DNA of 18,188 bases from Archangiaceae bacterium (lineage in GTDB: Bacteria; Myxococcota; Myxococcia; Myxococcales; Myxococcaceae): NCBI GenBank assembly GCA_043750125.1, contig JAYVCD010000182.1, positions 1 through 18,188 on the forward strand. Direction: 5' to 3'. Positions 2,856-18,133 of this stretch are shown one piece after another. The notes under the pieces are model-generated. The model ran no database searches and had not been told where the DNA came from. It saw nothing but the letters and a program-made list of their open reading frames with translations. The position numbers and the translations under genes were made by a program. Position 1 is the first letter of the stretch; every line of letters starts with the position of its first letter.

Positions 2856-4793
2856 ATGGCCCGCGGAGTCCTTTGCCCCAAATGCGCGATGATCGCTGCG
2901 GCCACCGCGACCGTTTGTCCCCGGTGCGCCACTGTCTTCGCGTCAGGCATTGACGCGTCGGAACGATCGCCCAACCACGGCTCGGCCTTGACGGTAGACG
3001 AGGACGGCCCCCGAGGGGCCACCCGGCCGTTCAAGGCGTTCACTCCCGACGCGACCTTTACCGACCACGACCATGCAGGGGCGACGGTCGACCTCGACGG
3101 CGCCGATTCGCAGACGATGGAGCTGCGCGCACTGCAGGGTCCGACCCCCGAGCAGGCCCAGGAGCCCCAGCCGAAGGGGACCTCTGCACCCCGCCGGACC
3201 CAGGCAGACCCGGTGGCGCAGGTCAACGCTCCGGCCGCGCGCCGCCCGGGTGCGCTGGCTCAGCACCAGGCCGCCGCTGCCGCCGTCCCGCCCTCACCCC
3301 GGAAGGACCCGATGACCGGGGAAAAACTGGGCGAGTACATCGTCGAAGAGAAGATCGGCACCGGAGGAATGGGCGTCGTCTACAAGGCACGCCAACCGCA
3401 AATCGGCAGCACGGTCGCGATCAAAATCCTTCGGGGCGACGTGATCGTCGACAAGCGCGACCTGCAACGGCTGCTCGACGAGGCGCGGGTGGTCAACGCG
3501 ATCAAGCACCGGGGAATCATCAACATCTTCGGCGCCGGAGAGCTGCCGGACGGACGGCAGTACCTGGTGATGGAATACCTCGATGGCGAGACGCTCGAGA
3601 AGCGGCTCGAGCGGGTGGAACGGCTTTCGACCGCCGACGCGCTGCCGATTCTCGATGAGGTGCTCGCCGCGCTCGCTGCCGCGCACGGCACCGGCATCGT
3701 TCATCGCGACCTCAAGCCGGCGAACATCTTTCTGGTCAAGCAAAGCGACGGGCCCGACCTGGTCAAGCTGCTCGACTTCGGGCTCGCGCGACGGCAGATG
3801 CAGGAAGTCAGTCGAATCGCTGGAACGCCCGACTACATCTCGCCTGAGCACGCGCGGGGGCGACCGGCGGGCCCTCCGGCAGATCTCTACGGCTTTGGAG
3901 TGCTGGCGTTTCACCTGCTCACCGGAGAGCTGCCGTTCAAGGGCAACACTCCGATGGAAATGATGGAACAGCACGTTCACTCTGCGCCGCCGGTGCCGAC
4001 GGAAATCAACCCCTCGATTCCCCCCGCGATGAGCGGGCTGATCCTCGCGCTGATGGAAAAAGATCCGGCCCGCCGACCCGACGCAGATCGCGCGCGGCAA
4101 GACCTCAAGGCCGCGGGTCGGCAGCTGCAGACGAAGGCAGGGCTCGAAACCTCGAATCCCATGGGCGGCCGACCTGCGTTTTCCGCCCCCCACCGCGCTG
4201 GGCTCGATTCGAGGCTCAAAGAGCTCACCCGGAAAGGGGACCTCGCCTTGCTGCTTCGCACTGCAACGCGCAACTGGCCCTGGGTCCTGGCCGGCTTTGC
4301 GCTGTTGTGGGTGGTAGGGGTGGTGGTCTGGATGAGGTTGACCCCGAACGTCCCCATTCCGCCCGCCACGCCCTTCCCCGGTTCGGTCAAGAAGGCCGCG
4401 GCGCCAGTGAGAGTCGCGCCGCAAATCGAGGTGAAGCGCGAAGTCCCGGTCGAGCCCGGTGCCCCCAAACCTTCCCCCCCCGAACCTTCCCCCATCGAAG
4501 CCCCACCGCTCGAAGCGCCCGCCGCTGCCGTGGCCGCACCGGAAAAGCACGACCTGGCCCGGGCGCCGCCCCTGAAGGAAGAGGTCGCTTTGAACAAGTG
4601 GCGGCTGAAGATGAAGAACGAGCTGGCGGTGCTCGATGCGCAGCTGTCGGGGAACCTCGAGCAGTTTCGCCCGGCACTCAATGACCTCGCCTTCGACATC
4701 GAGGGGGTCAACAACCCGCAAGGGCAGCAGTCGACCCAGGACCGGCTCGAAGCGTTGAAAGTGAAGTTCGAGCACGAAACCGAAAGCCGCTGA
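2856..4793 (+). CDS. Membrane-anchored Hanks-type Ser/Thr protein kinase with an N-terminal zinc ribbon
   Basis: CPKC-x10-CPRC at the N-terminus; GTGGMGVVY, VAIK, HRDLKPAN, DFG, GTPDYISPE, DLYGFG; TM WPWVLAGFALLWVVGVVVW; Pro-rich linker; helical C-terminal tail. Confidence 0.95.
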   Translation: MARGVLCPKCAMIAAATATVCPRCATVFASGIDASERSPNHGSALTVDEDGPRGATRPFKAFTPDATFTDHDHAGATVDLDGADSQTMELRALQGPTPEQAQEPQPKGTSAPRRTQADPVAQVNAPAARRPGALAQHQAAAAAVPPSPRKDPMTGEKLGEYIVEEKIGTGGMGVVYKARQPQIGSTVAIKILRGDVIVDKRDLQRLLDEARVVNAIKHRGIINIFGAGELPDGRQYLVMEYLDGETLEKRLERVERLSTADALPILDEVLAALAAAHGTGIVHRDLKPANIFLVKQSDGPDLVKLLDFGLARRQMQEVSRIAGTPDYISPEHARGRPAGPPADLYGFGVLAFHLLTGELPFKGNTPMEMMEQHVHSAPPVPTEINPSIPPAMSGLILALMEKDPARRPDADRARQDLKAAGRQLQTKAGLETSNPMGGRPAFSAPHRAGLDSRLKELTRKGDLALLLRTATRNWPWVLAGFALLWVVGVVVWMRLTPNVPIPPATPFPGSVKKAAAPVRVAPQIEVKREVPVEPGAPKPSPPEPSPIEAPPLEAPAAAVAAPEKHDLARAPPLKEEVALNKWRLKMKNELAVLDAQLSGNLEQFRPALNDLAFDIEGVNNPQGQQSTQDRLEALKVKFEHETESR

Positions 4794-4865
4794 AAGTCGC
4801 CCCACGCGCACACATTGCGCAGGGCTTGCCCGTCGAAGCGGGGGGGTGTAGCTGCCCGGGTAGCC

Positions 4866-5909
4866 ATGGCCAAGGAAGCGAAGAAGAAACCTGACGCGCC
4901 GAAGAAGGCCTTTCCGCGCCCCTCGCTGGTCACCCACTCTGACGCGCTGCCGCTGGAAGGCGCGCTGCTGAAGGCGATGTACGAGAACATGGTCAAGTCG
5001 CGCGCTCTGGAAGAGCGGCTGATCGCGATGTACAAATCAGGGCACGGCTATTTCTGGATTGGAGGACCTGGCGAAGAGGCCTTCAACACCGCGCTCGGGA
5101 TGCTGATCAAAAAAGGGCAGGGCCCGGCGTTCGACTTTCTCCACTTCCACTACCGGCAGTCGGCCACGTTGCTGGCGATGGGCGAAGAGCCGATCGGCTC
5201 GCTGCGGCAGATGAAGAACACCGCCACGGACCCCTACTCCCACGGGCGCAACTTCGCCGGCCACTTCAGCAAGAAAGAATGGAACGTCGCTCCGGTCAGT
5301 TCCCCGATTGAAGTGCAGTACGCGATGGCCCCGGGCACCGCGATGGCGCAGAAGCGGTTTGGTGGCGACGGGATCACGATCGTCACCGGCGGCGACGCGG
5401 GTACGGCCGAAGGAGACTTTGCTTCCTGCCTCATCTGGTCGACGCGGCCAGGCAACGAGCTGCCGATTTTGATCTGCGTCACCAACAACAAGTGGGGCAT
5501 CTCGACCCCCTACGCGACCCAGCAGGGTGTCGAAAAAATCTCGGACCGCGGCGTGGCCTTTCAGATGCGCACCAAGACGATCGACGGCAATGATCCGATC
5601 AGCTGCTACCTCGAGCTCACCGAGGCGATGGAATACGTCCGCACCGAGCGCAAGCCGTACCTGGTCGAAGCCAACGTCTCTCGCCTGTTCGGTCATTCGT
5701 CGGCGTCCGGAGCAAACTTCGCAACCGGCGAGGCCGACTGCATTCCCCTGTTCGAAGCGAAGCTGCTCAAGCATGGAGTGCTCAAGAAGGGCGAGGCCGA
5801 GGCGCTGAAGGCGAAGTGGACCGACGCGATCGCCGAGCAGGCGCGGCAAGTGCGTGACGAGCCGCAGCCCGAGGGCAGCTCCATCTTCAACCACATTTTC
5901 GCGGAGTAA
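4866..5909 (+). CDS. bkdA1: TPP-dependent 2-oxoacid dehydrogenase E1 alpha subunit (probably branched-chain, esg-like)
   Basis: R.LEERL, HYRQ, TPP-binding motif GDAGTAEGDF...NNKWGIST, DGND, RLFGHSS. ATG at 4866 is preferred over the TTG at 4815. Paired with the E1 beta gene. Confidence 0.85.
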   Translation: MAKEAKKKPDAPKKAFPRPSLVTHSDALPLEGALLKAMYENMVKSRALEERLIAMYKSGHGYFWIGGPGEEAFNTALGMLIKKGQGPAFDFLHFHYRQSATLLAMGEEPIGSLRQMKNTATDPYSHGRNFAGHFSKKEWNVAPVSSPIEVQYAMAPGTAMAQKRFGGDGITIVTGGDAGTAEGDFASCLIWSTRPGNELPILICVTNNKWGISTPYATQQGVEKISDRGVAFQMRTKTIDGNDPISCYLELTEAMEYVRTERKPYLVEANVSRLFGHSSASGANFATGEADCIPLFEAKLLKHGVLKKGEAEALKAKWTDAIAEQARQVRDEPQPEGSSIFNHIFAE

Positions 5910-5914
5910 TTTCA

Positions 5915-6970
5915 ATGGCGAGCATGGCCCAGGCCATTCGAATGGCGCTGCACTACGCGGAAGAGAATCTCGGCGTCACCGACATCTTCGGAGAGGACGT
6001 AGGTCCTCCCCTGGGCGGGGTGTTCACCGTGACCCAGGGCTTGAAGACGACCTGGAACACTCCGCTGGACGAACGGGGAATCATCGGGGTCGCGATGGGC
6101 CTGGCGATGGCCGGCCAACGCCCGGTCGCCGAGATTCAGTTCTGCGACTACATCTACAACACCATCGACCTGCTCAAGCTTGCGGGAAGCACCTGCTGGT
6201 CGAGCCACGGCGACTGGAATCTGCCGATGGTGGTGATGACTCCGGTCGGCAGTGGAATTCGCGGCAGCATCTACCACTCGCATTCCTTCGACGCGACGGC
6301 GACCCACATTCCCGGCTGGAAGATTGTGATGCCCAGCAACCCGCTCGATGCCTACGGGCTGATGATTTCCGCCTGCCGCGAGAAGAACCCGGTGATGTAC
6401 CTGAAGCCCAAGGCGCTGCTGCGGGTGCGCGGTGAAGAGGCGATTCCCGGTGAGCCGGGCGATGACAAGCAGTTGTCGAAGATGATCGACGCTCCGCTGG
6501 GAGACCGCTCGAAGTGGGCGCCCCGCTGGCCCGAGCTGACCGACTACGCGGTGAAGATCGGCGAAGGGAAAATCGTGCACCCCGGCAGCCGGCTCACGGT
6601 GGTCAGCTACGGCCGCACGCTGCCGCTGTGCGTGAACGCGGCGAAGACTTTGGCCGCCGAGGGCATCGACGCGGAAGTCATCGACCTGCGCAGCCTTTGG
6701 CCGTACGACTGGACGATGATCAAGGCCAGCGTCGAGAAGACCGGCCGGGTGCTCTACGTGAATGAAGACACCGAGGTGACCAACTTCGGAGAGCACCTGG
6801 TGCGGCGCACGGTCGAAGAGTTGTTCTACAAGCTCAACGCCGCGCCCAGGCTGCTCGCGGGCAAGTTCATTCCTGGAATCGGGCTGGCCGATGCGCTTGA
6901 GCTGATGTCGGTGCCCCAGCAAAACGACATCGAGCAGGCGATGCGCGCCCTGTCCGCCGAAGAAGCCTGA
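5915..6970 (+). CDS. bkdA2: 2-oxoacid dehydrogenase E1 beta subunit
   Basis: FGEDVG...GGVF, NTPLDERGIIG, PVAEIQFCDY, YHSHS, PSNPLDAYGL, EVIDLRSLWPYD, SVEKTGR. Starts 5 bp after the alpha stop. Confidence 0.9.
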   Translation: MASMAQAIRMALHYAEENLGVTDIFGEDVGPPLGGVFTVTQGLKTTWNTPLDERGIIGVAMGLAMAGQRPVAEIQFCDYIYNTIDLLKLAGSTCWSSHGDWNLPMVVMTPVGSGIRGSIYHSHSFDATATHIPGWKIVMPSNPLDAYGLMISACREKNPVMYLKPKALLRVRGEEAIPGEPGDDKQLSKMIDAPLGDRSKWAPRWPELTDYAVKIGEGKIVHPGSRLTVVSYGRTLPLCVNAAKTLAAEGIDAEVIDLRSLWPYDWTMIKASVEKTGRVLYVNEDTEVTNFGEHLVRRTVEELFYKLNAAPRLLAGKFIPGIGLADALELMSVPQQNDIEQAMRALSAEEA

Positions 6971-7040
6971 CCCCGAGAAGGGGGATGTGCGCCCAGGCAC
7001 AGTCGACAACTCAAAAATGTTGGGCGTAGGCTGTCGCGCG

Positions 7041-8072
7041 ATGCCTCGACTGACATTACCGATTCTGATGATCCTGGTCGCTGCCAGCAGCTGTGGCCGT
7101 TCGACTCCCTACACCTACCCGCCCGGAACTGTTCTGCCGGGCCAACCGGGAATGATGCTCCTCCCCGACGGAGGCGTGGGCCCGATCATCCCGACGATGA
7201 CGTGCAAGCCGATCGACAGCGACCTGTTCACGTTGCCGCCGAAGACCAAAAAACCGATCGACGTGCTGTTCGTGATCGACGACTCGGCGAGCATGAAGAA
7301 CGACCAGGAAGCGCTGGCGGCGAACTTCAAGTCGTTCATCGAGAGCTTCATCACCAGCGAAGTCGACTTTCACCTCGGCACGGTGACGACCGACATGATC
7401 AAGCCAGGTCGGAAAGGAGAGCTGGTTCTTCCGGGCTCTCCGATGGTGCGGTTCCTCGTTCCGTCGACGCCGAACCTCACCCTGGCGTTCGAGGCGATGG
7501 CGAACGTCGGGGTGAATGGGAGCCCCGACGAGAAGGGCCTGGCGGCGGCCAGAGCGGCCCTGTCCGAGCCGCTGCTGAGCGGCGCGAACAAGGGGTTCCT
7601 GAGGAAGGAAGCCGACCTCGGAATCGTGATCGTCGCCGATGAGGATGATCACGACAGTGACACGGTCGCCAACTACGTGAGCTTCTTCAAGGGCCTGAAG
7701 ACCGACATTGCAGCGATGAGCATTTCGTCCATCGCGCTGCAAAACGGAATCATCTGCAGCACCGCGAACTGGCGCTACGTCCAGGTCGCCCGGGCATTCG
7801 GGCCGCGCGGCCTGGTCAGCTCGTGCACCCCCGACTACGCGGAAACGCTCAAAGCCATCGGCGGCCGGCTGGTCGGCTCTCATTGCGTCATCGGCCTGAA
7901 GCGGTGGCTCGAGGAAGGGGCCCGGGTGCACGTGCTCGTCAATGGCGCCCCGTCCAACTTCATCCCCTACCCTCCTGACGAGGCGTACGCGAACGGGAGC
8001 ATTCAGTTGCTGACCTGCCCCTCCGGCGGCGGCACGGTCGAGATCGTCTACGAGGAATGTGTAGAGAACTAG
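7041..8072 (+). CDS. vWA-domain lipoprotein (myxobacterial type)
   Basis: Signal peptide II MPRLTLPILMILVAASS-C; MIDAS motif DVLFVIDDSASM; DFHLGTVTTD, EKGL, FLR.EADL.IVIVADEDD; Cys-containing C-terminal region. Confidence 0.8.
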   Translation: MPRLTLPILMILVAASSCGRSTPYTYPPGTVLPGQPGMMLLPDGGVGPIIPTMTCKPIDSDLFTLPPKTKKPIDVLFVIDDSASMKNDQEALAANFKSFIESFITSEVDFHLGTVTTDMIKPGRKGELVLPGSPMVRFLVPSTPNLTLAFEAMANVGVNGSPDEKGLAAARAALSEPLLSGANKGFLRKEADLGIVIVADEDDHDSDTVANYVSFFKGLKTDIAAMSISSIALQNGIICSTANWRYVQVARAFGPRGLVSSCTPDYAETLKAIGGRLVGSHCVIGLKRWLEEGARVHVLVNGAPSNFIPYPPDEAYANGSIQLLTCPSGGGTVEIVYEECVEN

Positions 8073-8478: not shown

Positions 8479-11400
8479 CTAGTAGATGCCCTTCATCGAC
8501 GGGTCGGCCAGCCCGAAGTCCCGCATCGCCTGACGCATGAAGAACGGCGCTTCCTCGTACTTCGACAGCTCGAGGCAGGCCTTGTTCGAAGCGCAGGTGC
8601 ACGAAGAGTTGTCGGTGGGGTTGCAACCCGGGCGGCCGTTCGAAAGCTGGCCGTTGGGAGCGACGTAGCTGATCGACGGGTCGTACTTCACCCGCGGCTG
8701 ACCGTTGGTGATGGTCGGCAGGACCCAGTCGGGAGCCCCGTCGAGATCTGCGTCGGGGCCCGGCGTCACTTCATAGGCGCGGGCCAGCAGCTCATTGCCC
8801 CACTCGAGCATGCGGGCCGAGATTCCCTTCTCGACGCGCTTGCCCAGAATGGTCTCTTTTCCAAAGCTCTTCGCGATGTACGTCTTCCCTTTCGGAACGT
8901 GCAGCTCGATGCGGTTCGGGAAGCCCGGGTCGGTGTCGGCGCCGACTTCCCAGATGTTCATCTGGTTGAGCCAGGTCTGCTGCTGGTTCTCGGGCAGGTA
9001 CATCAGCGTCCACGCGATGAGGAACTTCTGCTGTTCCCATCCGACCTGGGGGTCGATCGCCACCGAGGTGGAAGAAGCCGTCTCGCACTGCAGGCTCTCT
9101 TCGCGCTGGAAGCAGGTCTCGGGCGTCGCCTTCCACCACTGGGTCCAGCCGACTGCCTTGCTGGGGTACTTGGTGGTCTGCTCGACCGAAGGAACCCCCT
9201 GGGTCGAGGCTGCCACCCGCGGGCCTTTGAGCACGTCATCGCCGGTCAGGTTGTTGCCGAGCCAGCGGCGGTAGCCTTCGGGGAACAGGTCGGCCAGCGA
9301 GACCGAACGGTAGCGCGCATCGAGGAAATCGCGCCGCGAGTCGCTGATGAAGTTGTCGACCGACTCGGTGAACAGCATCGCCGTCCAGGCCTTCTCGTAA
9401 TACGAGCCGGCATTGACCGTGAACTGCGAGTCGTACTCGCCCTTGGTGGTGGCGAGCGCATTCTCGAGCGGGCGACCGCCGAAGGCGACGTTCCCGTAGT
9501 AACCAGTGGCGCCGTTGGGCATCGTCATCACCGTGGGTCCGGCGTTGCCGGCGGTGTCGAGGGTCGAGCGCAGAATCTTGGTCTGCGCGGCGCCCTGGGT
9601 TCCCATCTGGTGGGGGCCTGCCTGCGGCCGGGCCAGCTGCTTCGAGAAGTGATCGAAGCCCAGGCCCGAGGCGAGCATGTTGTCACCGAACAGCTCGATC
9701 GACAGGTACGGCCAGAGGCCATCGAAGTCGTAGCCCTGCTCCACCGCGAAGTCGCGATAGATGTTGGCGATCAGCCCGATGCCCTTGGCCGAGTCGCGCA
9801 GCTTCTCGTTGTAGCGGGTGAGCGAACGGGTCGCCGCGCCCCGGACGCTGAACGACTGCCGGTTGCGCCGGTAGTTGTCGAAGATGTGGTTGACCTCTTG
9901 CTGGGTGATGAGGAAGTCGAACAGCTCGTACGGGTCGGCGCCGTTGTCATGACGGTAGACGCTGAGGTTGCCCAGGTCCGCCCAACGGTCGGTCGCGAAA
10001 CCATACGGAACGCGCAACCGTAGGTTCGGGTCGACCGCGTGGGTTCCGCGGCCGGAGCCCGGCTCTGCCATGTCGGCCCACGCGACGTAGTCCACCGGCT
10101 GCTGGCGGCAGCGGCTGTACTTCCCGGCGACGTTGACGATCAGCCCGTCGAACATCGGGTGCCACACCCCACTGACCGCATCGTCCCAGTGCGCGGGCTT
10201 GAAGTTGGCCGGGTCGACCTCTTCGCAGGACTGGATCATCTGGAACTCTTTCTGCAGTTCCGAATAGTGAATGGTGCGGGTGTCCTTGGGGTTCGCCAAC
10301 GTCGGAGCGCCCACCTCGAACCGGATTCCCAGAATGCCGCCGAAGTTGTCGAGCTTGGCGATCGCACCCGTGCCTCGCGGAGTGCCGGCCCGGTAGGAGG
10401 CATCGGTGAAGACCGAGACCACGTCGCCGTAGAACATGCGGGCGGCCGCGAAGTCGTAAGCGCCGAGCCCGATCATGTCTTGAGTGGCTTCGCCCGCGTA
10501 GTCCATGGTCGAGGACTGCATGAACATCGTGAGCAGGTTCTTCTTTTCGTTGGCGTTGATCGGGTCGAAGTAGCGCGGACCGACGCAGGCGCCCGTGCCA
10601 TCGAGGCCGGTGCACTTGGTGGTGTTGACCCCGTTGTCCGTGCGCAACTGCCAGTACTGGGGACGGTAGTTGAACGCGTCTGCCGAGCTGACGAAGTTGT
10701 GCCGCAGCCCGATCGAGTGCCCCATCTCGTGGGTCACGACCGCGTAATGCGCCCGCTGCGCGAGGTACTTTCGCATCGCGGCGGCCCGAACGGCCTGCAC
10801 GTCTTTGCTCTGGGTACGGTCGAACTTTCCGAACTTCTCTTCGAGCAGGCTCGCCACATCGGCGATGGCCAGCGGGGCCGGAGCCTCGTTCATCACGCAC
10901 GCGCCGCGCTCAGAAAGCGCGAGCTCTTTGGCCTGGCGCACTTCACGCTGCAGCACCGGGTTCGCGCCGCGCAACGGCGAGGCGAGCTCTGAGAGCATGT
11001 CGCTGCTCAGCTTCCCGTCGCCACCAGCGAAGGACTGCATCATCTTGGTGGTCAGCGCCGCTTCGGTGGCGGTGTTGAGGGCGTGCTTGCGGCGCGCCTC
11101 GTAGATCGGCTTGGTGCTCGAGGGCGCCTTCGCATCGAGGCGAATGTTCGCGCTGTCCCGCGCAATCTGCTTCAGGTCCTTGAACAGCGGGCTGGCCTTG
11201 AGGCCCGCGACCCGGGTGCGAACTTCGGCGGTGTCGGCCAGGCCCACCGCTTCGGCGAGAAAGCGGTCGCGCTCGCCGGCGGTGAGCTGGGGCAGGCTTC
11301 CCTTGCTGGACGCGGCTTCGGCGGCGCTGGCCCAGTCGCGAATGTAGTCGCCGTCGGTGATTTCAGGCGTGGTCAGCTCGCCTTTGATGTAGCGCGAGGT

Positions 11401-13233
11401 GTCGACGATGCTCTGGCTCCACAGGTCGGTGACGTGGGACCAGACGTTGATGCTCGCCGAGACGATTTCACCGGTGAGCGGGTCATTGGCGTCGACCATG
11501 ATTCCCCAGGGCGAAGGGGTCTGGGGGGTGGTGATGGTGTTGACCTGGTGGTAGCGCAGGTCGCCCTTGCGCGCGTTGAGCGCGGCGCGGCAGGTGGTGA
11601 TGACCGCGGTGTCGTTGTCCCTCTCAGCGTTGAAGCAGTTGAGCGCCGTCACATCGTCGGGAAGACGGGGCGAGCCGCAGGGGCCGGGGTCATGGGCTTC
11701 GACCGGGCTGTGGCAGAGCACCAACATCTCGGGAAGCGCTGCGAGCGCGCGGACTCCGGGGGCGTACTTGCGCTTGGCGCCGATGCTCTGGGCCAGGCTG
11801 GTGCAGTCTTCGCCGACATAGGCGCGGCCGTCGCGGCAATCATCGACTTCGCCGGCGAGATCGATCGCATCCTGGTTGTCGTCCATCTGGCCGTTGTAGA
11901 CGGGGAAGGTGGTTTCGCACGCGGTGCCCTTGGTGCGAACGCACTCGGAGTAACGCGCAGTCTGGACTGCGCTGCGCAGGGCAACGTCCCATTCGTGGGC
12001 GGCCTTGCGGGTGGCATCGAAGAACTCGGGGCTCGAGCCGCTGGCGTAGTACCAGGCGATCGGACGCACCTTGCGGTCCTTGAAGGGCAAGGTGCAGGCC
12101 TGGCGGAAGGTGTCGCAGCGCGAGCCGCTGCCGACTGCCTTGCACTCGTCTTCAGTGCCGTCTTTGTCGAGGTCGCGGTGGGGGTCTGCACCGACCGGGG
12201 TGGAGGTCGGGGTGAAGCACGAGACCGGGCCGGTCATCGCTGCGGGGTCGGTGTAGACGTGGCTGCGTTCCCAGATGTTGTAGCGGTTGATGAACCGGTG
12301 CCACTGGGTGTCGGTCATTCCGTAGTTGCGCGCGTAGCCCTTTCGATCAGAAGTGAAGGCGCCGAACGCCTGGAACTTGAGGCCGTCCCAGTCCTGCGCT
12401 TCGTAGTCGTTGTCTTGGACTTTGCGGAACGACTGACGAATCGTGAGCTCGACCGGAGAGCATTGCGCGGCCGGAGCGACGCCGCCCGCGAAGTCCGCGT
12501 CGTACATGCAGGCCGGCACCATTCCACCGCCGAAGCGGGCGAGGTCGATCATCAGCGGTTTGGCAAAGGCCTTGTTGGTGACGTCGAGGTAGCCCACCGC
12601 GGGGTCAAAGTGGGGAGCGTCGGGGTGGCCCGGCTCGTTGACGAAGTACGCCAGGGGCTCGTACGAGATGCCGCCGTAGAGCCCGATTTGCGAAAGCGAG
12701 TCGTAGTCGAAGTTGTCGGTGCTGAGGTTCTTCGACCAGTCGACGCGCATCTTGGTGCGCTCGTACCAGGGGCGATCTTTGTCGTTCTCTTCGATGACGT
12801 TGAGCTGCTCGCCGGTCGACGGGTTGTAGTCGCGCTTCACGTCGAAGTGCTTCGAGATCTTGTAGGCGGCGACGACGATTCCGTCGTTGGTGGCCTTTCC
12901 GGCTCCGCGGCCATCGCTGCCTTCGATGCGCTCGTACGCGAGGCGGGCGATGAGCAGATCTTCCTGCACCGTCCACTTGATCCGGCTCAGCGGCTGGGCA
13001 TACGTCGAGGTGAAGAGCCCGTCTTGTCCGGCGCCGTAGCCCACGTCGACCAGCGTCCCCTGGGACCAGAATTCCGGGTCATCGCTGATCGCCTTGAAGT
13101 CCTTCCCGATGAAGAACTCTTTGTCGAAAGAATCGGGCTGGACGCGCACGATCGGCGGTTGCTCCTGAGCGCAGCTGGCCAGAAGTGCGGCCGTGGCGCA
13201 GAGCCAGAGCGATGAGAGGAGGCGCGTCTTCAT
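8479..13233 (-). CDS. Giant (1584 aa) lipoprotein, zinc metalloprotease of the metzincin type
   Basis: Lipobox LLAS-C; HEMGHSIGLRH at 10699-10731; Met-turn SSTMDY near 10505; DxDxDG loops (DLDKDG, DLDGAPD); many paired Cys. Confidence 0.9.
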   Translation of the reverse strand: MKTRLLSSLWLCATAALLASCAQEQPPIVRVQPDSFDKEFFIGKDFKAISDDPEFWSQGTLVDVGYGAGQDGLFTSTYAQPLSRIKWTVQEDLLIARLAYERIEGSDGRGAGKATNDGIVVAAYKISKHFDVKRDYNPSTGEQLNVIEENDKDRPWYERTKMRVDWSKNLSTDNFDYDSLSQIGLYGGISYEPLAYFVNEPGHPDAPHFDPAVGYLDVTNKAFAKPLMIDLARFGGGMVPACMYDADFAGGVAPAAQCSPVELTIRQSFRKVQDNDYEAQDWDGLKFQAFGAFTSDRKGYARNYGMTDTQWHRFINRYNIWERSHVYTDPAAMTGPVSCFTPTSTPVGADPHRDLDKDGTEDECKAVGSGSRCDTFRQACTLPFKDRKVRPIAWYYASGSSPEFFDATRKAAHEWDVALRSAVQTARYSECVRTKGTACETTFPVYNGQMDDNQDAIDLAGEVDDCRDGRAYVGEDCTSLAQSIGAKRKYAPGVRALAALPEMLVLCHSPVEAHDPGPCGSPRLPDDVTALNCFNAERDNDTAVITTCRAALNARKGDLRYHQVNTITTPQTPSPWGIMVDANDPLTGEIVSASINVWSHVTDLWSQSIVDTSRYIKGELTTPEITDGDYIRDWASAAEAASSKGSLPQLTAGERDRFLAEAVGLADTAEVRTRVAGLKASPLFKDLKQIARDSANIRLDAKAPSSTKPIYEARRKHALNTATEAALTTKMMQSFAGGDGKLSSDMLSELASPLRGANPVLQREVRQAKELALSERGACVMNEAPAPLAIADVASLLEEKFGKFDRTQSKDVQAVRAAAMRKYLAQRAHYAVVTHEMGHSIGLRHNFVSSADAFNYRPQYWQLRTDNGVNTTKCTGLDGTGACVGPRYFDPINANEKKNLLTMFMQSSTMDYAGEATQDMIGLGAYDFAAARMFYGDVVSVFTDASYRAGTPRGTGAIAKLDNFGGILGIRFEVGAPTLANPKDTRTIHYSELQKEFQMIQSCEEVDPANFKPAHWDDAVSGVWHPMFDGLIVNVAGKYSRCRQQPVDYVAWADMAEPGSGRGTHAVDPNLRLRVPYGFATDRWADLGNLSVYRHDNGADPYELFDFLITQQEVNHIFDNYRRNRQSFSVRGAATRSLTRYNEKLRDSAKGIGLIANIYRDFAVEQGYDFDGLWPYLSIELFGDNMLASGLGFDHFSKQLARPQAGPHQMGTQGAAQTKILRSTLDTAGNAGPTVMTMPNGATGYYGNVAFGGRPLENALATTKGEYDSQFTVNAGSYYEKAWTAMLFTESVDNFISDSRRDFLDARYRSVSLADLFPEGYRRWLGNNLTGDDVLKGPRVAASTQGVPSVEQTTKYPSKAVGWTQWWKATPETCFQREESLQCETASSTSVAIDPQVGWEQQKFLIAWTLMYLPENQQQTWLNQMNIWEVGADTDPGFPNRIELHVPKGKTYIAKSFGKETILGKRVEKGISARMLEWGNELLARAYEVTPGPDADLDGAPDWVLPTITNGQPRVKYDPSISYVAPNGQLSNGRPGCNPTDNSSCTCASNKACLELSKYEEAPFFMRQAMRDFGLADPSMKGIY

Positions 13234-14255
13234 GTGGATTCTCCAAACAGACCAGACACTGCGGCTTCGATGTCGAAGCTGGCGTCGAGGTACAACGTGG
13301 TGTTGCGATTGAACAACGGAAAGTAGCGGGTGCCGGAGGTGTTGATCTGCGGCGAGAAGGTGAGCGCGCCGACGGTGAGGGCGATCGGCCGGAACAGCTG
13401 CCAGGTCACCGAGAGATCAAAGGTGGTGTAGCTGCGCACCGGAGTGTCGACTGCCGCGGCGATCGGCCCCAGCTCGGCGGGCGCGGCGGACAGCGGGTAG
13501 AGCCAGAGGTGGGTGAGAAGGAAGGTGGCGTTGATCGACAGCTTCTCGATCGGGTTGAAAGCAATCGAGGGCCCGTGGGTCAGATCCGAGTGGGCGTTTC
13601 GCTTTCCGGTGGTGATGAACTCGGCGCACTCGGCCGCCAGGGGATTGCCGCACGCGATGCTGGGAGATTCGTTCTGGGCGGTGGTGTACCGATGAAACCG
13701 GTAGCTGTAGCGGCCGCCGTACGCGACGGTGAACCCGAAGGGAAAAGCGCGAGAGACCGACAGCCCGGGGCCAATCGCCAACAACCGGGTGGCCGCGCGC
13801 GACGTCTTCGAGGTGGGGAAGGCGATGCGAAGATCCGCCCCGACGTGGATCTTGGAATGTTTTTCAGTCCACCCGGTGAGTCCCCCTTCCAGCGCAAGGT
13901 CCGAGAACTCGACCTCATTGCGGCGGGTGGTGCTTTCAGACGGGGTGAATTCCTGAGCCAGATACAGCCGGGCCCGAACGAAGAGCAGGTCGTTGAAGTG
14001 CCATTCGGGTGCGATTCCGAGTCGGTGGGACCAGGTCGGGTTGTAGTGGGGCTCGGCTCCTCGATCGAAGGTGTAGGCGGTGGCCTGGTGCCCGTACGTC
14101 AGCGCGGACCCCCGATATTTGGGCTTCGCCTTCGTTTCGACCGCTGTTGTTGTGGTCTGAACGACCTGCGCCTGTGCCACGAAACTGGCGACGATCGCGA
14201 TCAGTCCGACAAGCCCGGCGCGGTTTGTCGTTCTAAGGGGGTGCCAGGAAGACAT
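13230..14255 (-). CDS. Outer-membrane beta-barrel protein (~12 strands)
   Basis: Signal peptide ending AQA; about 12 amphipathic strands with aromatic ends (LGIAPEWHF, LFVRARLYL, FSDLAL, VGADLRIAFPT, FTVAYGGRYSYRF, TTFDLSVTWQL, TLYLDASFD). ATGA overlap with the protease gene. Confidence 0.8.
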   Translation of the reverse strand: MSSWHPLRTTNRAGLVGLIAIVASFVAQAQVVQTTTTAVETKAKPKYRGSALTYGHQATAYTFDRGAEPHYNPTWSHRLGIAPEWHFNDLLFVRARLYLAQEFTPSESTTRRNEVEFSDLALEGGLTGWTEKHSKIHVGADLRIAFPTSKTSRAATRLLAIGPGLSVSRAFPFGFTVAYGGRYSYRFHRYTTAQNESPSIACGNPLAAECAEFITTGKRNAHSDLTHGPSIAFNPIEKLSINATFLLTHLWLYPLSAAPAELGPIAAAVDTPVRSYTTFDLSVTWQLFRPIALTVGALTFSPQINTSGTRYFPLFNRNTTLYLDASFDIEAAVSGLFGEST

Positions 14256-14268
14256 TGCGGCGGCCTTG

Positions 14269-14284
14269 TGCAGGATACAGGCCA
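14269..14284 (-). promoter_or_regulatory. Putative sigma-54 (-24/-12) promoter for the barrel-protease operon
   Basis: TGGCCTG-TATC-CTGCA, with GG and GC at the consensus spacing, just upstream of ATG 14255. Confidence 0.5.
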
Positions 14285-14396
14285 GCTCAGTGACCCATCA
14301 GGGCTCACCGGTCAATGACTGACTTCCCCGCTTTGTGGCTTCGAAGCGGCAACAGATTCATGTCCCGAGCTCTTGGGGACGAGGGCTGAAAAGACT

Positions 14397-16040
14397 TCAG
14401 CCGGCGTAGAACTCCAGGCCGACGGTGACGCGGTACTGCGGGTAGAAGAACGGAACACCAGAGATTTGGGGGATGGGCAGGGCGATGTTGAGGGGGTTGA
14501 TGATCAAGTAGAAGAGGCGGTGGGCCTTCCACTCGAGCCCGAGCGGACTGAGCCCGAAGTAGAGGCCGACGCTGCCCGCGGGCGCCCCATAAAAGTTCGA
14601 GAGCAGCACCGAGGTCCCCGCGCTCAAAGTCGAGCGGAGGTTGAAGTTCTCGTAAGCCAGGGGGAACCGCAGAATACCGGTCAGAAAGGCATTGATGACC
14701 CCGCGACGAACCGGGGTGCCGTTGAGCGCGAACCACGGGTTCCACTCTCCATCGAGACCGATCGACCAGCGCCGGGTCAACCGCAGCCTCGCGCCCAGGG
14801 TCACCGCGAGCGCGGCTTTGTCGAAGGAAGCGCCGACCGCTGCGTACCCGCCGAAAGCCATTTGCGAAGGATCCACCGGCAGCGCCTCGGCGACCGCGGT
14901 CACGGTCGGAGGCGGAGGTGCGTGCTCGTCGATGCCACCGTCGGCCTGGGCCTGTGCGCTGCCGATCGTGAAGGGAAGCGCGAAGCAGACGGCCAGCAGG
15001 CCGGCGAAGGTGCCGAGGCGTCGGGCCCGTCGGCTCAGAGCGAGGAAGGCGAAGAGGGTGCCCAGTGCGGCCGCCTGGGTAGTCGAGGCGCAGCCGCAGC
15101 CGGCAGGCTTGGGGATCTTCGCTTCTGGAGCATCACACCAGCCGTTCTCGAAAGTGCAGCCCGGCTTGAAGCCCAGGTATCGATCGAGCGCGGCGTCGAC
15201 CGCGGCCATCTTCTGGTCCTTCGTCTGGCTCGGGTCGAGCGTCGCGCGGAGCAGCGCGGCCGAGGCATCGGTCGCAAGCTCCCGCTTGTGTCTGCGCAAG
15301 TCATCGGGGTCGTCGCAGACATCGAGCACTGCGGCGTGCGCCGGCCCATCGGCCGACTCGACCAGGGTCTTGTTGACGAACGCGAGCCAATTCAAGGCCA
15401 CGGTGATCTGCATCCCATCGACGCTTCGGTACGAGTGGGTGAAGCTGTCCTGCACCGCGTGCATCGCCTGGCCCATTCGAACGTAATAGGTGGGCAGAAG
15501 GGCCTCGACGCCGCCGCGGATGGACAGGTGCACGGCCAGTGAGGTGCGCTTTTCAGAGTCGACATTTCCGGACGCGTCGAGGCCCTCGAGGGCTTCGGCG
15601 ATTCGCCCGCGAATGAAGGCCCGACAGGCTTTGATCGAGGCTTCGGTGCCCGCGGGCTCTTTCTGGCTCGCGTCGCGCAGGCAGTGCTCGGCCTGATCGG
15701 CCGGGTCGCCGTGAATCTCGGCCAGCTCGGTCAAATCTCCAGAGCCGCGGCCCTTGAGGTCGTTGTCGCGAACACCGATGACGAGGGTCACGGCTCCGAG
15801 GTCCGCCATGTCGTCCTCGGGCTTGAACTGCAGGTCGATAATCAAGGCTTCCTCGTTCGCGGTGGCGGTCAGGGGTGCGGCCGTTTTCAGCTCGGCCCGC
15901 ACGGTGCGAAGTGCGAGCGACGTGATCCGCTCGTGGCAGCCGGCCGCGAAGGCGTTCTTGATCGTGTAGCCCTGCGCGGCACTTGACGCGACGCACACCC
16001 CGCACAGCGAAGCGAGGAGCCCGGGTGCCAGGGGCCTCAA
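14397..16040 (-). CDS. Exported Zn-dependent PLC/P1-nuclease-like protein with an internal MYXO-CTERM-like signal, a second signal peptide and a C-terminal 8-strand beta-barrel (547 aa)
   Basis: TTG start at 16040 overlaps the upstream stop (TTGA). Signal peptide ends SSAAQG/Y. Motifs CHERIT, RDND, EHCLR, GQAMHAVQDSFTH. Then GCGC-hydrophobic-RRARR, a second hydrophobic segment ending AQAQA, and amphipathic strands ending YRVTVGLEF. Confidence 0.8.
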   Translation of the reverse strand: MRPLAPGLLASLCGVCVASSAAQGYTIKNAFAAGCHERITSLALRTVRAELKTAAPLTATANEEALIIDLQFKPEDDMADLGAVTLVIGVRDNDLKGRGSGDLTELAEIHGDPADQAEHCLRDASQKEPAGTEASIKACRAFIRGRIAEALEGLDASGNVDSEKRTSLAVHLSIRGGVEALLPTYYVRMGQAMHAVQDSFTHSYRSVDGMQITVALNWLAFVNKTLVESADGPAHAAVLDVCDDPDDLRRHKRELATDASAALLRATLDPSQTKDQKMAAVDAALDRYLGFKPGCTFENGWCDAPEAKIPKPAGCGCASTTQAAALGTLFAFLALSRRARRLGTFAGLLAVCFALPFTIGSAQAQADGGIDEHAPPPPTVTAVAEALPVDPSQMAFGGYAAVGASFDKAALAVTLGARLRLTRRWSIGLDGEWNPWFALNGTPVRRGVINAFLTGILRFPLAYENFNLRSTLSAGTSVLLSNFYGAPAGSVGLYFGLSPLGLEWKAHRLFYLIINPLNIALPIPQISGVPFFYPQYRVTVGLEFYAG

Positions 16041-16249
16041 CCGTTGCGTCGCGAGCTGACCAGCATCACTCCGCCGGCCGCGATCATCAGCGCTCCGGCG
16101 ATGGGGGCGATGGGCACCGAATGCTCCCGTTCCGCCGTCGCGTGAATCGGCCCGAGGTCGAGGACGGTGTCTCGGGACGTGTACCGAATGCCCCCGTAGA
16201 CGAGGCCAAGCAAGCCCAGTGCAATCAACACCATTGCGGCGATTTTCAT
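16037..16249 (-). CDS. Small two-TM membrane protein (70 aa, DUF3185-like)
   Basis: MKIAAMVLIALGLLGLVYGGIRYT...VLDLGPIHATAE..SVPIAPIAGALMIAAGGVMLV-SSRR: TM, short loop, TM, basic tail. Confidence 0.8.
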   Translation of the reverse strand: MKIAAMVLIALGLLGLVYGGIRYTSRDTVLDLGPIHATAEREHSVPIAPIAGALMIAAGGVMLVSSRRNG

Positions 16250-16261
16250 AGCGCCCGACAG

Positions 16262-16277
16262 AGCAGCCGGCGTGCCA
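16262..16277 (-). promoter_or_regulatory. Putative sigma-54 promoter
   Basis: TGGCACG-CCGG-CTGCT, one mismatch to the consensus TGGCACG-N4-TTGCW. Confidence 0.65.
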
Positions 16278-16432
16278 CGAACTTTCTGACATGTCGGTAT
16301 TTCTTCGCAGCAGAGGGGCGCCCTGCCAGATCGACCTCTTCGGGCTTCGAGCTCTGCACCGAAGGGAACGGAAGGGGCGCGAGGCAAAATAGGACGGTGA
16401 GGCACTCTTGCGCGCGGTGAAGAACGGACATG

Positions 16433-16458
16433 AAAAAGCCCGCGGGCTGCGCGGGCTT
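16433..16458 (-). terminator. Rho-independent terminator
   Basis: Minus strand AAGCCCGCG-CAGCC-CGCGGGCTT-TTT: a 9-bp perfect stem running into a T5 tract, ~27 bp after the stop at 16485. Confidence 0.85.
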
Positions 16459-16484
16459 CAGTTCAAATGAAGTGAGGTCTAAGA

Positions 16485-16901
16485 CTACTTGCGGTGATCC
16501 CACCCTCGGCGAACGAATGGCTTGGCTTCTTCGAATTTCATCCCCGTCTGACCAGAGTCCCATTCACCCGACAGCTTGGTCTCGAGCCTCTCGTCCCACT
16601 GGGTGAACTTCTGGCCGTATTCCTCGCGGGCGCCAAACCCGTAGGCGACCGCCGGCTCGACCTTCTCGAAGTCCGGAGGATTGGGCTGGTTCGCAGGGGG
16701 AATCGCCTCGCTTCCCGCCGCCTGTTTCACGGTGTCGGCGACGCCCTGGCGAAGCTCTTTGCCACTGTCGACGTGGAGATCCGCCTTGGTCTGGGCCCAA
16801 TCTCGCTTGAGTGCTTCCTTCGCGTGGTCCCACGCGCTGCCGTGCTTCTCTTCCTTCCAATAGCTCGGGTGCCACTGACTGTTGCCTTTTGAAGTCGCCA
16901 T
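16485..16901 (-). CDS. Hydrophilic hypothetical protein (138 aa) with repeated Trp-bounded helical motifs
   Basis: ATG 16901 preceded by AGGGA. Motifs WDHAKEALKRDW, WDERLETKLSGEW, FEEAKPFVRRGW. Has its own promoter and terminator. Confidence 0.8.
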   Translation of the reverse strand: MATSKGNSQWHPSYWKEEKHGSAWDHAKEALKRDWAQTKADLHVDSGKELRQGVADTVKQAAGSEAIPPANQPNPPDFEKVEPAVAYGFGAREEYGQKFTQWDERLETKLSGEWDSGQTGMKFEEAKPFVRRGWDHRK

Positions 16902-16957: not shown

Positions 16958-17071
16958 TGAACCCTGATGGAAACGTGGCTGTTTGCGACGCCCTTTCGAT
17001 GCAACCTCACCCCGGTGAGACAACATTGAGCGCAGGTACGAGCGGTATTCTTTGTGCTTGGCCGGAGCTTC

Positions 17072-18133
17072 ATGAATTCTCCGCTCACCCCAGGGATCCT
17101 CGCGGCAGTGGTGCTGTGCTGCGCGTGCGATTCGAAAGTGTCGTCGTACCGAATTACCAGCCACGTCCCGTCAGACCCGGACGCATTCTCGAATGCTCTG
17201 TATCAATCGACGGCCGCGCAACTGACTGCGGGCCACCACGTCGAGCTGGTCAACAACGGAGCGGTCTTCGATCGCCTCGAAGAAGAGCTGGCCAAAGCGC
17301 GCGTGAGCATCAACCTGGTCCTCTTCATCTGGCGACCCACCGAGCCTTCGCAGCGCATGGTGAACGCGATCACCGCCCGCGCGAAGGCGGGCGTCACCTG
17401 CCGGATCATCGTCGATGCCATCGGAAGCTCGGAGTTCGAGGACGCAGTGAAGCCTGCGTTGGTGGCCGCGGGGTGCGACGTGCGCACCTTCAGGCCCGCG
17501 AAGAGCGGAGCGACCGGAGATCGCAACCACCGAAAGATCGTGGTCATCGACGGAAAGGTCGGGTTCACCGGAGGCTTCGGAATCGAGAAGCCCTGGTTGG
17601 GCAACGGGCGTAAGCCGGACGAATGGCGGGAATCGAACGCGATCGTCGTCGGGCCGGCGGTGAACATGATGCAGCAGGCGTTTGCGGACAATTGGCAGGA
17701 AGTCGGCGGGCCGCTGCTTCCTTCCACCGATTTTCCGGTGCCCGACGTGACGGGGCCGACGCGCGCGGCGTTCGTTTCGAGCACCGAATCGGCGCACCTC
17801 ACGCGGGCCGAACGGCTGATTCAGCTGGTGATCGCCTCGGCGACGCGGCGGGTGTGGATCGCCAATGCGTATTTCGTCCCTTCGCCCGGCGTGGTCGAGC
17901 TGCTGCTCGAGAAGAAGCGCCAGGGCGTCGACGTGCGAATCATGGCTCCCAGCGATGCCACCGATCACAAGCAGGTCCTACGCGAGCAGCGCGCGACGTA
18001 CCCGAAGCTGCTCGCCGGAGGCGTGCGCATCTGGGAATACCAGCCATCGCTGCTGCACTCGAAGACGATGCTGGCGGACGACCACCTCAGTATCCGCTGC
18101 ACGGAGTGGTGGTTGCGGGCAGCGACGGACTGA
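17072..18133 (+). pseudogene. cls: Cardiolipin synthase / phospholipase D family gene, truncated just after the second HKD motif
   Basis: GGAG SD before ATG 17072. HKD1 RNHRKIVVIDG...GG.GI, WRES, IANAYFVP, HKD2 LHSKTMLADD. The expected following GSxN segment and C-terminal helices are absent in all three forward frames after ~18090. Confidence 0.75.

Follow-up and report, generated by a model that had tools for sequence, protein, structure and literature searches.

The 18,188-nucleotide stretch of DNA analysed here (the window) comprises positions 1 to 18,188 of contig JAYVCD010000182.1 in the GenBank assembly GCA_043750125.1 of an Archangiaceae bacterium. This work concerns one gene on the minus strand of the window, whose single open reading frame holds an exported enzyme-like domain, a sorting tag of the MYXO-CTERM type and an outer-membrane beta-barrel. 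The elements of the gene, each with the basis on which it was placed, are as follows.

14397..16040, minus strand: whole open reading frame, 547 codons plus stop, with a TTG start (translation).
15969..16040, minus strand: N-terminal Sec signal peptide, residues 1-24 (inspection of the translation).
15102..15968, minus strand: enzyme-like domain, residues 25-313, 289 residues (AlphaFold2 model; invariant His/Asp/Glu/Cys).
15018..15101, minus strand: internal MYXO-CTERM-type tag, residues 314-341 (GCGC, helix and RRARR; TIGR03382 and AlphaFold2).
15090-15101, minus strand: GCGC motif of the tag, residues 314-317 (translation).
Within 15018..15101, minus strand: first hydrophobic stretch, residues 322-336 (translation).
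15018-15032, minus strand: RRARR cluster of the tag, residues 337-341 (translation).
14943..15017, minus strand: internal signal-peptide-like segment, residues 342-366, ending in AQAQA (rules and alignment with the signal peptides of relatives).
14859..14942, minus strand: Pro-rich linker, residues 367-394, with the motif HAPPPP...DPS (low model confidence).
14400..14858, minus strand: 8-strand outer-membrane beta-barrel, residues 395-547 (AlphaFold2 and Foldseek).

A preliminary description of the locus had proposed this layout, and translation and AlphaFold2 modelling recover every element of it at the coordinates given there. The full-length AlphaFold2 model, built from a 57-row alignment, has a mean predicted local distance difference test (pLDDT) of 84.3 and a predicted template modelling score (pTM) of 0.79; it shows two helices (residues 322-339 and 345-357) and, behind a disordered linker, exactly eight strands, which lie between residues 395 and 546. 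The predicted cut of the N-terminal signal peptide leaves Tyr25 as the first residue, and the family consensus at this place is A-x-A followed by Y/F-T-I. The two halves had been described as joined with no stop or Met; a codon check found neither between RRARR and the second hydrophobic segment, nor any in-frame GTG or TTG. Since 206 residues follow the Arg cluster, the tag does not lie at the extreme C-terminus. The VGLEF claimed as the end of the barrel holds only in part: GLEF is present, but the protein terminates in ...GLEFYAG, with the aromatic residues third and fourth from the end. Only one copy of the gene is present in its own genome, and a database copy (P0002) is also 547 amino acids long and identical in protein sequence. 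A promoter and terminator scan of 14100-16600 found nothing.

At the joint between the two halves, the sorting tag of the enzyme comes first and the signal peptide of the barrel second, and one Arg cluster lies between the two. We consider it likely that the gene encodes a polyprotein, that is, an in-frame fusion of a two-gene myxobacterial module of enzyme and barrel whose product is cut by myxosortase and signal peptidase I (SPase I). The module itself is probably a secreted metal-dependent hydrolase with a MYXO-CTERM tag, together with a small 8-strand outer-membrane barrel as its partner.

The arrangement of the two halves was compared across 301 genomes sampled from the same phylum, 37 of which, including the window's own genome, have a match at E <= 1e-5. 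From these, 39 loci were cut out and their open frames mapped against both halves; 35 loci have a complete N-terminal (enzyme) domain, hereafter the N-domain. The fused arrangement occurs in 16 of the 35, this gene included, an enzyme gene followed by a barrel gene in six (L016-L018 from one genus and L021-L023 from another), and a barrel gene followed by an enzyme gene in 11. The script left two loci unclassified, namely L038, which has a weak barrel match upstream, and L037, which is cut by a contig end. Note that the automatic label "enzyme first" of L036 is an artefact of a long open frame, and that L039, a partial locus from the genus of L016-L018, also has the enzyme-then-barrel order.

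The sorting signals of these loci meet at the point of fusion. All 15 fused loci from other genomes, whose N-domain identity goes down to about 29%, share the joint described above: a Cys, a helix, the Arg cluster, a hydrophobic segment and a site of the A-x-A type. L024 is the most compact of these, with the barrel standing immediately behind that site. Where the barrel gene comes first, a true Cys-helix-Arg tag forms the very end of the enzyme. Where the enzyme gene comes first, the barrel ATG lies right at the enzyme's Arg cluster: it overlaps the enzyme stop as ATGA in L021, overlaps the enzyme tail out of frame in L016, and is located about 30 bases downstream in L018. The barrel genes of L016-L018, L021-L023 and L039 begin with Met and a segment equivalent to the internal signal peptide, and those of L016, L018 and L021 have a signal peptide that resembles the query's internal segment residue by residue. 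Because the split barrels start with a matching signal peptide at the fusion point, the second hydrophobic segment can be identified as the barrel's former signal peptide; likewise, because the split enzymes end in such a tag, the segment ahead of it can be identified as the enzyme's former C-terminal tag. The halves are thus found as adjacent genes in distant relatives, in either order, with their signals meeting at the fusion point. The preliminary description had also assigned the Arg cluster a double role, as the tail of the tag and as the n-region of the internal signal peptide, and it is exactly there that the tag and the barrel signal peptide of the split relatives meet.

A maximum-likelihood tree of the 35 N-domains, with a midpoint root, consists of two clades, each with support of 100/99. 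The first (13 rows) contains the barrel-first loci and the two unclassified ones. In the second (22 rows), 16 fused and six enzyme-first loci are interleaved, with fused loci on the deepest branches, and under this root parsimony calls either for a fused ancestor that underwent two fissions or for about six fusions that arose independently. In either direction, the tree indicates that the genes have been fused or split repeatedly at exactly this joint, as would be expected if the joint is cut out of the mature products anyway. In the sister clade (L025-L036 and L038) the order of the genes is reversed, the barrel gene lying upstream of the enzyme gene, and several genomes (e.g., G023, G087, G092, G240 and G290) have members of both clades.

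Conservation of the joint was examined in a wider set of proteins. A homologue search among proteins of similar length, in which 8000 candidates were scored at a cut-off of E <= 0.001, matched 644 proteins of 300-958 amino acids, and the best 120 of the 644 are all 535-686 amino acids long and 50-63% identical. The joint alignment consists of the query and 119 homologues (n = 120; P0002 is left out as identical), and the joint features were counted in it by simple rules, five of them being required: the Cys, the basic cluster, the first helix, the second segment and the small-x-small site. Gly-Cys ahead of the first helix is found in 119 of the 120, three or more Arg/Lys within a 7-residue window in 119, first-helix hydrophobicity over the bar in 116, the second hydrophobic segment in 119, and a small-x-small site behind it in 119. 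All five required features are present in 114 of 120, and the six sequences that fail are near-threshold or parsing cases. The fuller motif C-x(0-2)-C, as in GCGC, occurs in 50 of 120. Together with the shared joint of the 15 fused loci from other genomes, these counts establish that the fusion and both motifs are conserved.

The position of the start codons in the split relatives raises the alternative that translation of the barrel begins, additionally or exclusively, at an internal start, which would make the fusion merely apparent. In those relatives the barrel start codon lies at exactly the corresponding point, and 16 of the 120 aligned sequences have a Met near the joint; the other 104 have none there, and since this gene lacks an in-frame ATG, GTG or TTG between RRARR and the hydrophobic core, the barrel cannot be translated by itself from it. 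We regard an internal start as very improbable.

A second alternative is that the fusion is an assembly or sequencing artefact, or a recent pseudogene fusion by loss of a stop codon. The genome is a fragmented metagenome-type assembly (460 contigs, 89.4% complete), and two relatives, L009 (G165) and L012 (G299), have fused-type copies with the enzyme domain spread over two frames, which are frameshifted pseudogenes or assembly errors. Against this, hundreds of independently assembled homologues are fused likewise, both halves are clearly conserved, and across 14700-15400 a contig from a different run (X2) shows a single substitution and no indel. The contigs X3 and X4 are free of indels in the parts that they cover; they break between 15010 and 15031, a part without cover that gives no evidence either way. 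As the runs X2-X4 come from the same study as the probable source, they give weak independent support. The probability of an artefact or a lost stop is negligible, and the fusion is real and old.

Among 41 shorter homologues, most begin or end in the middle of a domain and are fragments or frameshifts; only P0148 (214 amino acids, on a 6171-nucleotide contig) resembles a stand-alone barrel, with its start at the second hydrophobic segment. The region that reaches from this segment to the barrel ranges from 30 to 112 residues across homologues. Immediately ahead of the barrel, the stretch HAPPPP...P-x-x-P-G-P-x-D-P-S ranks with the most conserved of the protein, yet has low model confidence; it could be a plug, a periplasmic contact or an aid in targeting to the beta-barrel assembly machinery (BAM). 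In P0019, P0036, P0088 and other homologues, a Thr/Pro-rich, mucin-like insert lies between the internal signal peptide and the barrel, which extends the region to as many as 112 residues; this insert is probably the cause of weak matches to the GltJ (22 of 57) and Mucin hidden Markov models (HMMs). A lipoprotein signal at the joint was considered and rejected: the Cys in the second segment (LAVC) is preceded by Val and is not conserved in homologues.

The family is large. A profile of 30 N-domains, searched against the representatives of clusters at 50% identity, matches 750 representatives at E <= 0.001 and 432 at E <= 1e-30. The best 150 were analysed except for P0128, a fragment; a barrel lies behind the enzyme domain in 93 of these 149 representatives and is absent in 56. 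Of the barrel-less representatives, 47 are 325-438 amino acids long, and a terminal tag is indicated by a crude test in 33 of the 56, with several more tag-like by eye. In the nine longer ones (523-726 amino acids), comparison found no barrel behind the enzyme domain. Six representatives of 630-726 amino acids (P0212, P0220, P0239, P0256, P0283 and P0307) have the same enzyme domain with an apparently different C-terminal extension, which may represent fusions to other partners.

As the preliminary description had proposed a MYXO-CTERM tag, the protein was scanned with the corresponding HMMs. TIGR03382 matches the internal tag over model positions 1-27 of 27, and in this respect the proposal stands; the match scores 14.3 bits, just under the cut-off of 15.85, and requires that the protein be truncated behind RRARR. 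No TIGR03901 match is obtained for this protein at E <= 10. Among 57 fused relatives, TIGR03901 matches 18 (best E 1.8e-4) and TIGR03382 matches four (best E 0.0012) at E <= 1; the terminal tag of L037 reaches 16.3 bits on TIGR03382, above the cut-off, and several public homologues are annotated as "MYXO-CTERM domain-containing protein". The protein thus has the GCGC, the hydrophobic helix, the basic cluster RRARR and the N-terminal signal peptide of MYXO-CTERM proteins, in a genome that encodes a myxosortase, and departs from them in lacking the extreme C-terminal position and a score above the HMM cut-off.

The segment that follows has, by simple rules, the parts of a Sec/SPase I signal: RRARR as a basic n-region, an h-region at residues 342-361, and A-Q-A. 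Candidate SPase I sites are located after A364 or A366, and the A-R-A sites of aligned homologues favour A364. Proteins for the putative processing are encoded in the same genome (G000): the myxosortase core NF040914 (139.1 bits, cut-off 100), the GspD secretin of a type II secretion system (T2SS; 615.9 bits, cut-off 351), and SPase I (131.5 bits, cut-off 47).

These two signals are each unusual in position, so that either protease might fail on an atypical substrate, in this case a tag away from the C-terminus or a signal peptide away from the N-terminus. One cut only would then be made: either myxosortase would free the enzyme and leave the barrel tethered by the hairpin, or SPase I would free the barrel and leave the enzyme anchored in the inner membrane. 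In the available part of PMC11980579, moreover, the surface-localisation defect in the absence of the myxosortase MrtX is not absolute. However, the two motif sets are conserved together, as judged from the 114 sequences that pass all rules, each corresponds to a functional signal of the split relatives, and BAM would rarely be offered a barrel that is still tethered by two helices. We therefore think a single cut unlikely.

The barrel is well recognised by fold. In a Foldseek search of the Protein Data Bank (PDB), the OmpA transmembrane domain 1bxw ranks first (E 8.2e-06) among 21 matches at E <= 0.001; Ail, NspA, OprF-N and OmpW are further fold matches. By sequence, no NCBIfam model matches, and the only Pfam match is DUF3575 under its cut-off (13 bits, cut-off 21.1), which also matches 21 of 59 relatives at E <= 1. 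In the AlphaFold2 model, the odd-numbered strand connections are 4, 8, 11 and 11 residues long and the even-numbered ones 4, 5 and 5. In OmpA-type barrels, the long loops face outward.

Modelling of the complex had also been proposed, and a complex of residues 25-317 and 367-547, each with a 57-row alignment, was predicted in three runs with three controls. The enzyme docks on the barrel's long loops with scores of 0.70, 0.73 and 0.74 (median 0.73), against 0.00 for the best of the controls; the mark for this score is reached by 58 of 80 solved complexes and two of 110 mismatched pairs. Contact agreement between the runs is at least 92%, and the pLDDT of the partners is at least 80. On the barrel side, the contacts lie in loops 436-445, 481-487 and 529-533, which are the long odd-numbered loops at the end opposite to the barrel termini; on the enzyme side, they involve residues 61-73, 100-101 and 172-180. 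Residues A65, L66, D69, F72, Y484, G485 and A486 of the interface are invariant or nearly so. The prediction supports binding between the enzyme and barrel halves. An enzyme on the long outer loops would be located at the cell surface, detached from the periplasmic N-terminus of the barrel, and this position fits MYXO-CTERM sorting; given the predicted contacts and the usual topology, an enzyme tethered on the periplasmic side could not reach those loops.

The predicted contacts bear on the possibility that the protein is not cleaved at all. The two helices and the short Arg loop make a normal helical hairpin in the AlphaFold2 model, which might serve as a permanent inner-membrane anchor, and linkers of 30-112 residues could cross the periplasm; the beta domain would then reach the outer membrane on its linker, or would not be a membrane barrel. 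A mere anchor would have no need of the small-x-small site that is kept in 119 of 120 sequences, however, and relatives make the two halves separately, one ending in a tag and the other beginning with a signal peptide. In addition, the beta domain matches OmpA-type membrane barrels, and the contacts sit on its long outer loops. A permanent anchor is, in our judgement, quite unlikely.

Under the preferred explanation, a polyprotein that is cut twice, processing would proceed as follows. The N-terminal signal peptide would direct export of the enzyme domain through Sec, and the tag helix would act as a stop-transfer sequence, leaving the Arg cluster in the cytoplasm. The second hydrophobic segment would re-insert with its N-terminus inside and its C-terminus outside and carry the barrel part across the membrane, where SPase I would cut behind the A-x-A site and free the barrel for insertion by BAM. 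The Cys of the tag would be lipidated, myxosortase would cut behind that Cys, and the enzyme would be transported by the T2SS, so that enzyme and barrel might reunite on the cell surface while a small two-helix remnant remains in the inner membrane. The outcome would be two proteins at 1:1 from one translation product. The MYXO-CTERM steps of this scheme follow the working model and the TraA experiments in the available part of PMC11980579.

Several points weigh against this explanation. The tag of this protein scores under the curated TIGR03382 cut-off and has no TIGR03901 match at E <= 10; known myxosortase substrates end shortly behind the Arg cluster, whereas this tag runs into another helix. 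The putative internal SPase I site is suggested by simple rules and by homology to N-terminal signal peptides. The calibration of the complex score holds only roughly, because the alignments were our own and were cut from a single fused protein, and the sidedness of the loops is taken from the usual OmpA-type topology. As the tree has a midpoint root, the direction of change, fission or fusion, is not proven. Lastly, we infer every processing step, for all members of the family. The interpretation given in the preliminary description is nonetheless supported by every computational test available, cleavage being its inferred part.

A broader proposal, to which we give about even credence, is that the family represents a widespread polyprotein with a self-removing membrane hairpin, recognised by two unrelated membrane proteases: myxosortase on helix 1 and signal peptidase I on helix 2. 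The products would travel via the T2SS and BAM and meet as a 1:1 surface complex, and loss of the hairpin would let the genes fuse or split without loss of function, as they would have done at least twice here. The enzyme would found a new family of metallo-hydrolases that are located at the surface of predatory myxobacteria and depend on a barrel of their own as a platform for docking.

The nature of the enzyme domain was approached from its conserved residues. The AlphaFold2 model of the domain alone has a pLDDT of 87.2 and a pTM of 0.89. Over 30 sequences that span all three gene arrangements, the invariant residues are C35, H36, E37, R91, D94, Q116, H119, R122, H194, D198, H202, R205, H235, D240, C242, C295 and C302, and position 25, the first mature residue, is always Tyr or Phe. 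This invariant His/Asp/Glu/Cys set and the constant aromatic residue suggest an extracytoplasmic, disulfide-bonded, metal-dependent hydrolase.

No Pfam or NCBIfam model matches the domain above its cut-off, and PDB sequence searches with two profiles gave no meaningful match, one of them returning 0 hits. The order of the candidate ligands (aromatic residue 1, His, Asp, His, His-x3-Asp, His, His and an acidic residue) presumably resembles that of the nine zinc ligands of phospholipase C/nuclease P1. Kinship with the zinc phospholipases C was tested in four ways and not established. PF00882 does not match this protein, and gives only sub-threshold matches in two of 59 close relatives and four of 10 distant ones (E 0.009-0.091). 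The best Foldseek matches in the PDB, clostridial alpha-toxin and the phosphatidylcholine-preferring phospholipase C of Bacillus, are not significant (E 0.18, template modelling (TM) score about 0.24). An hhalign comparison with 11 true PF00882 proteins of the same phylum gives a probability of 1% and E 0.053 over only 19 columns around H-x3-D-x3-H. The Atlas offers leads only, to the VWA7_N, Het-C and Zn_dep_PLPC clusters. The domain is therefore called here a probable metallo-hydrolase, and not a phospholipase C.

The remaining features of the window are the following.

591-1646: RlmN-like radical S-adenosylmethionine methyltransferase.
2856-4793: Ser/Thr kinase.
4815-6970: 2-oxoacid dehydrogenase E1 alpha and beta.
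6987-8072: CglD/MIDAS-adhesin-like protein.
8479-13233, minus strand: protein of 1584 amino acids with a lipoprotein-type signal (…LLASC), a HEMGH zinc-protease motif near residue 835 and a sub-threshold match to the DUF4953 Met-zincin.
13230-14255, minus strand: protein of 341 amino acids with a signal peptide, directly downstream of the fused gene; no Pfam or NCBIfam match.
16037-16405, minus strand: 122-codon open reading frame just upstream of the fused gene, with two hydrophobic segments and a weak match to the sortase signal NF058582 (19.4 bits, cut-off 27).
17054-18133: cardiolipin-synthase-like phospholipase D (PLD) protein.

Neither the downstream 341- and 1584-amino-acid genes nor two upstream open reading frames have a tblastn match in the other loci, within flanks of about 1.5 kb; the fused gene therefore stands alone rather than in a conserved operon. 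The 341-amino-acid protein resembles outer-membrane barrels of the Phenol_MetA_deg (PF13557) type (TM about 0.6 in the Atlas structure comparison), its nearest clusters being myxobacterial, and the stop of its gene is overlapped by the start of the 1584-amino-acid gene. These two proteins may form a barrel plus lipoprotein-protease pair. The NF058582 match of the 122-codon frame may be due to chance.

The preliminary description made more of the novelty of combining an internal tag and a barrel than is warranted. In the available part of PMC11980579 (mBio 2025), MXAN_5598 of Myxococcus xanthus is described as having an adhesin region, next an internal tag, and lastly a barrel of the outer membrane with an OmpA domain; the authors suggest that two genes such as those of TraA and TraB may have been fused in it, and propose that its N-terminal part is processed and surface-anchored. 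A fusion of internal tag and barrel is hence already in print there as a proposal, and the protein described here belongs to a different family. Compared by description, both have a surface domain, an internal MYXO-CTERM motif and a C-terminal outer-membrane beta-barrel; MXAN_5598 is a large adhesin whose barrel has an OmpA cell-wall-binding domain, whereas the present protein has an enzyme-like cargo of 289 residues and a bare 8-strand barrel. The internal signal peptide described here is not mentioned for MXAN_5598 in the part of PMC11980579 at hand. The same source reports that MrtX cleaves the TraA tag, and cites work in which LPXTG and archaeosortase signals function when internal. In literature on internal signal peptides and polyproteins, about half of the matches listed deal with viral polyproteins and the others mostly with type IX secretion and signal peptidase in Bacteroidetes; no bacterial fusion of such a kind is described among them, as far as their available text goes, and MYXO-CTERM and phospholipase C were not found treated together.

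The present family adds to this precedent in several ways: it is compact and very large, its cargo is enzyme-like, it gives explicit evidence for a signal peptide of the partner as the second hydrophobic segment, it has fused and split members in a single tree, and a confident interface is predicted on the outer loops of the barrel. It also brings to light an uncharacterised pair of surface enzyme and 8-strand barrel, for which no Pfam or NCBIfam model scores above its cut-off. Polyproteins that are resolved at the membrane are textbook knowledge for viruses and rare in bacteria. If the proposed processing is true, MYXO-CTERM tags function internally, signal peptidase I uses internal signal peptides in a native outer-membrane protein, and sorting signals serve as evolutionary joints at which operons fuse and split freely. 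Because it is large and compact and has both fused and split forms, the family is a cleaner test case than the giant adhesin MXAN_5598.

Other known systems share parts of this logic. Like TraA and TraB, as far as these are described in the available text of PMC11980579 and PMC3325183, the module pairs a MYXO-CTERM surface protein with a barrel partner, and the adjacent, overlapping genes of that pair follow the logic of the split relatives. Unlike them, it is encoded here by one gene, and an enzyme-like domain takes the place of TraA, a polymorphic recognition receptor; no sequence similarity to TraA or TraB turned up in any search of this analysis. A substrate of Haloferax volcanii ArtA (ref. 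46 of PMC11980579, as cited there) and the proteins named "midcut-by-XrtH" in NCBIfam likewise have a tripartite sorting signal in the middle of the protein, at which they are processed or after which they are so named. Those cases differ in using an archaeosortase or exosortase and other signals. To our knowledge, neither a barrel partner nor an internal Sec signal peptide is known for them.

In the Bradyrhizobium cytochrome b/c1 precursor FbcH, a polyprotein is cut by signal peptidase at an internal signal peptide. Viral glycoprotein precursors and FbcH resemble the present protein in that one product with alternating stop-transfer and signal sequences yields separate proteins through signal peptidase. 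They depend on a single protease class, whereas here a second, intramembrane sorting protease and lipidation would act on the same hairpin, and the two products would reach the outer membrane by different routes. Finally, autotransporters also combine a passenger domain and an outer-membrane barrel in a single polypeptide. Their passenger traverses a barrel of 12 strands, they contain a single signal peptide, and they lack an internal membrane hairpin; the barrel described here, in contrast, has eight strands and is too narrow for passage of a passenger, and two membrane helices lie at the joint.

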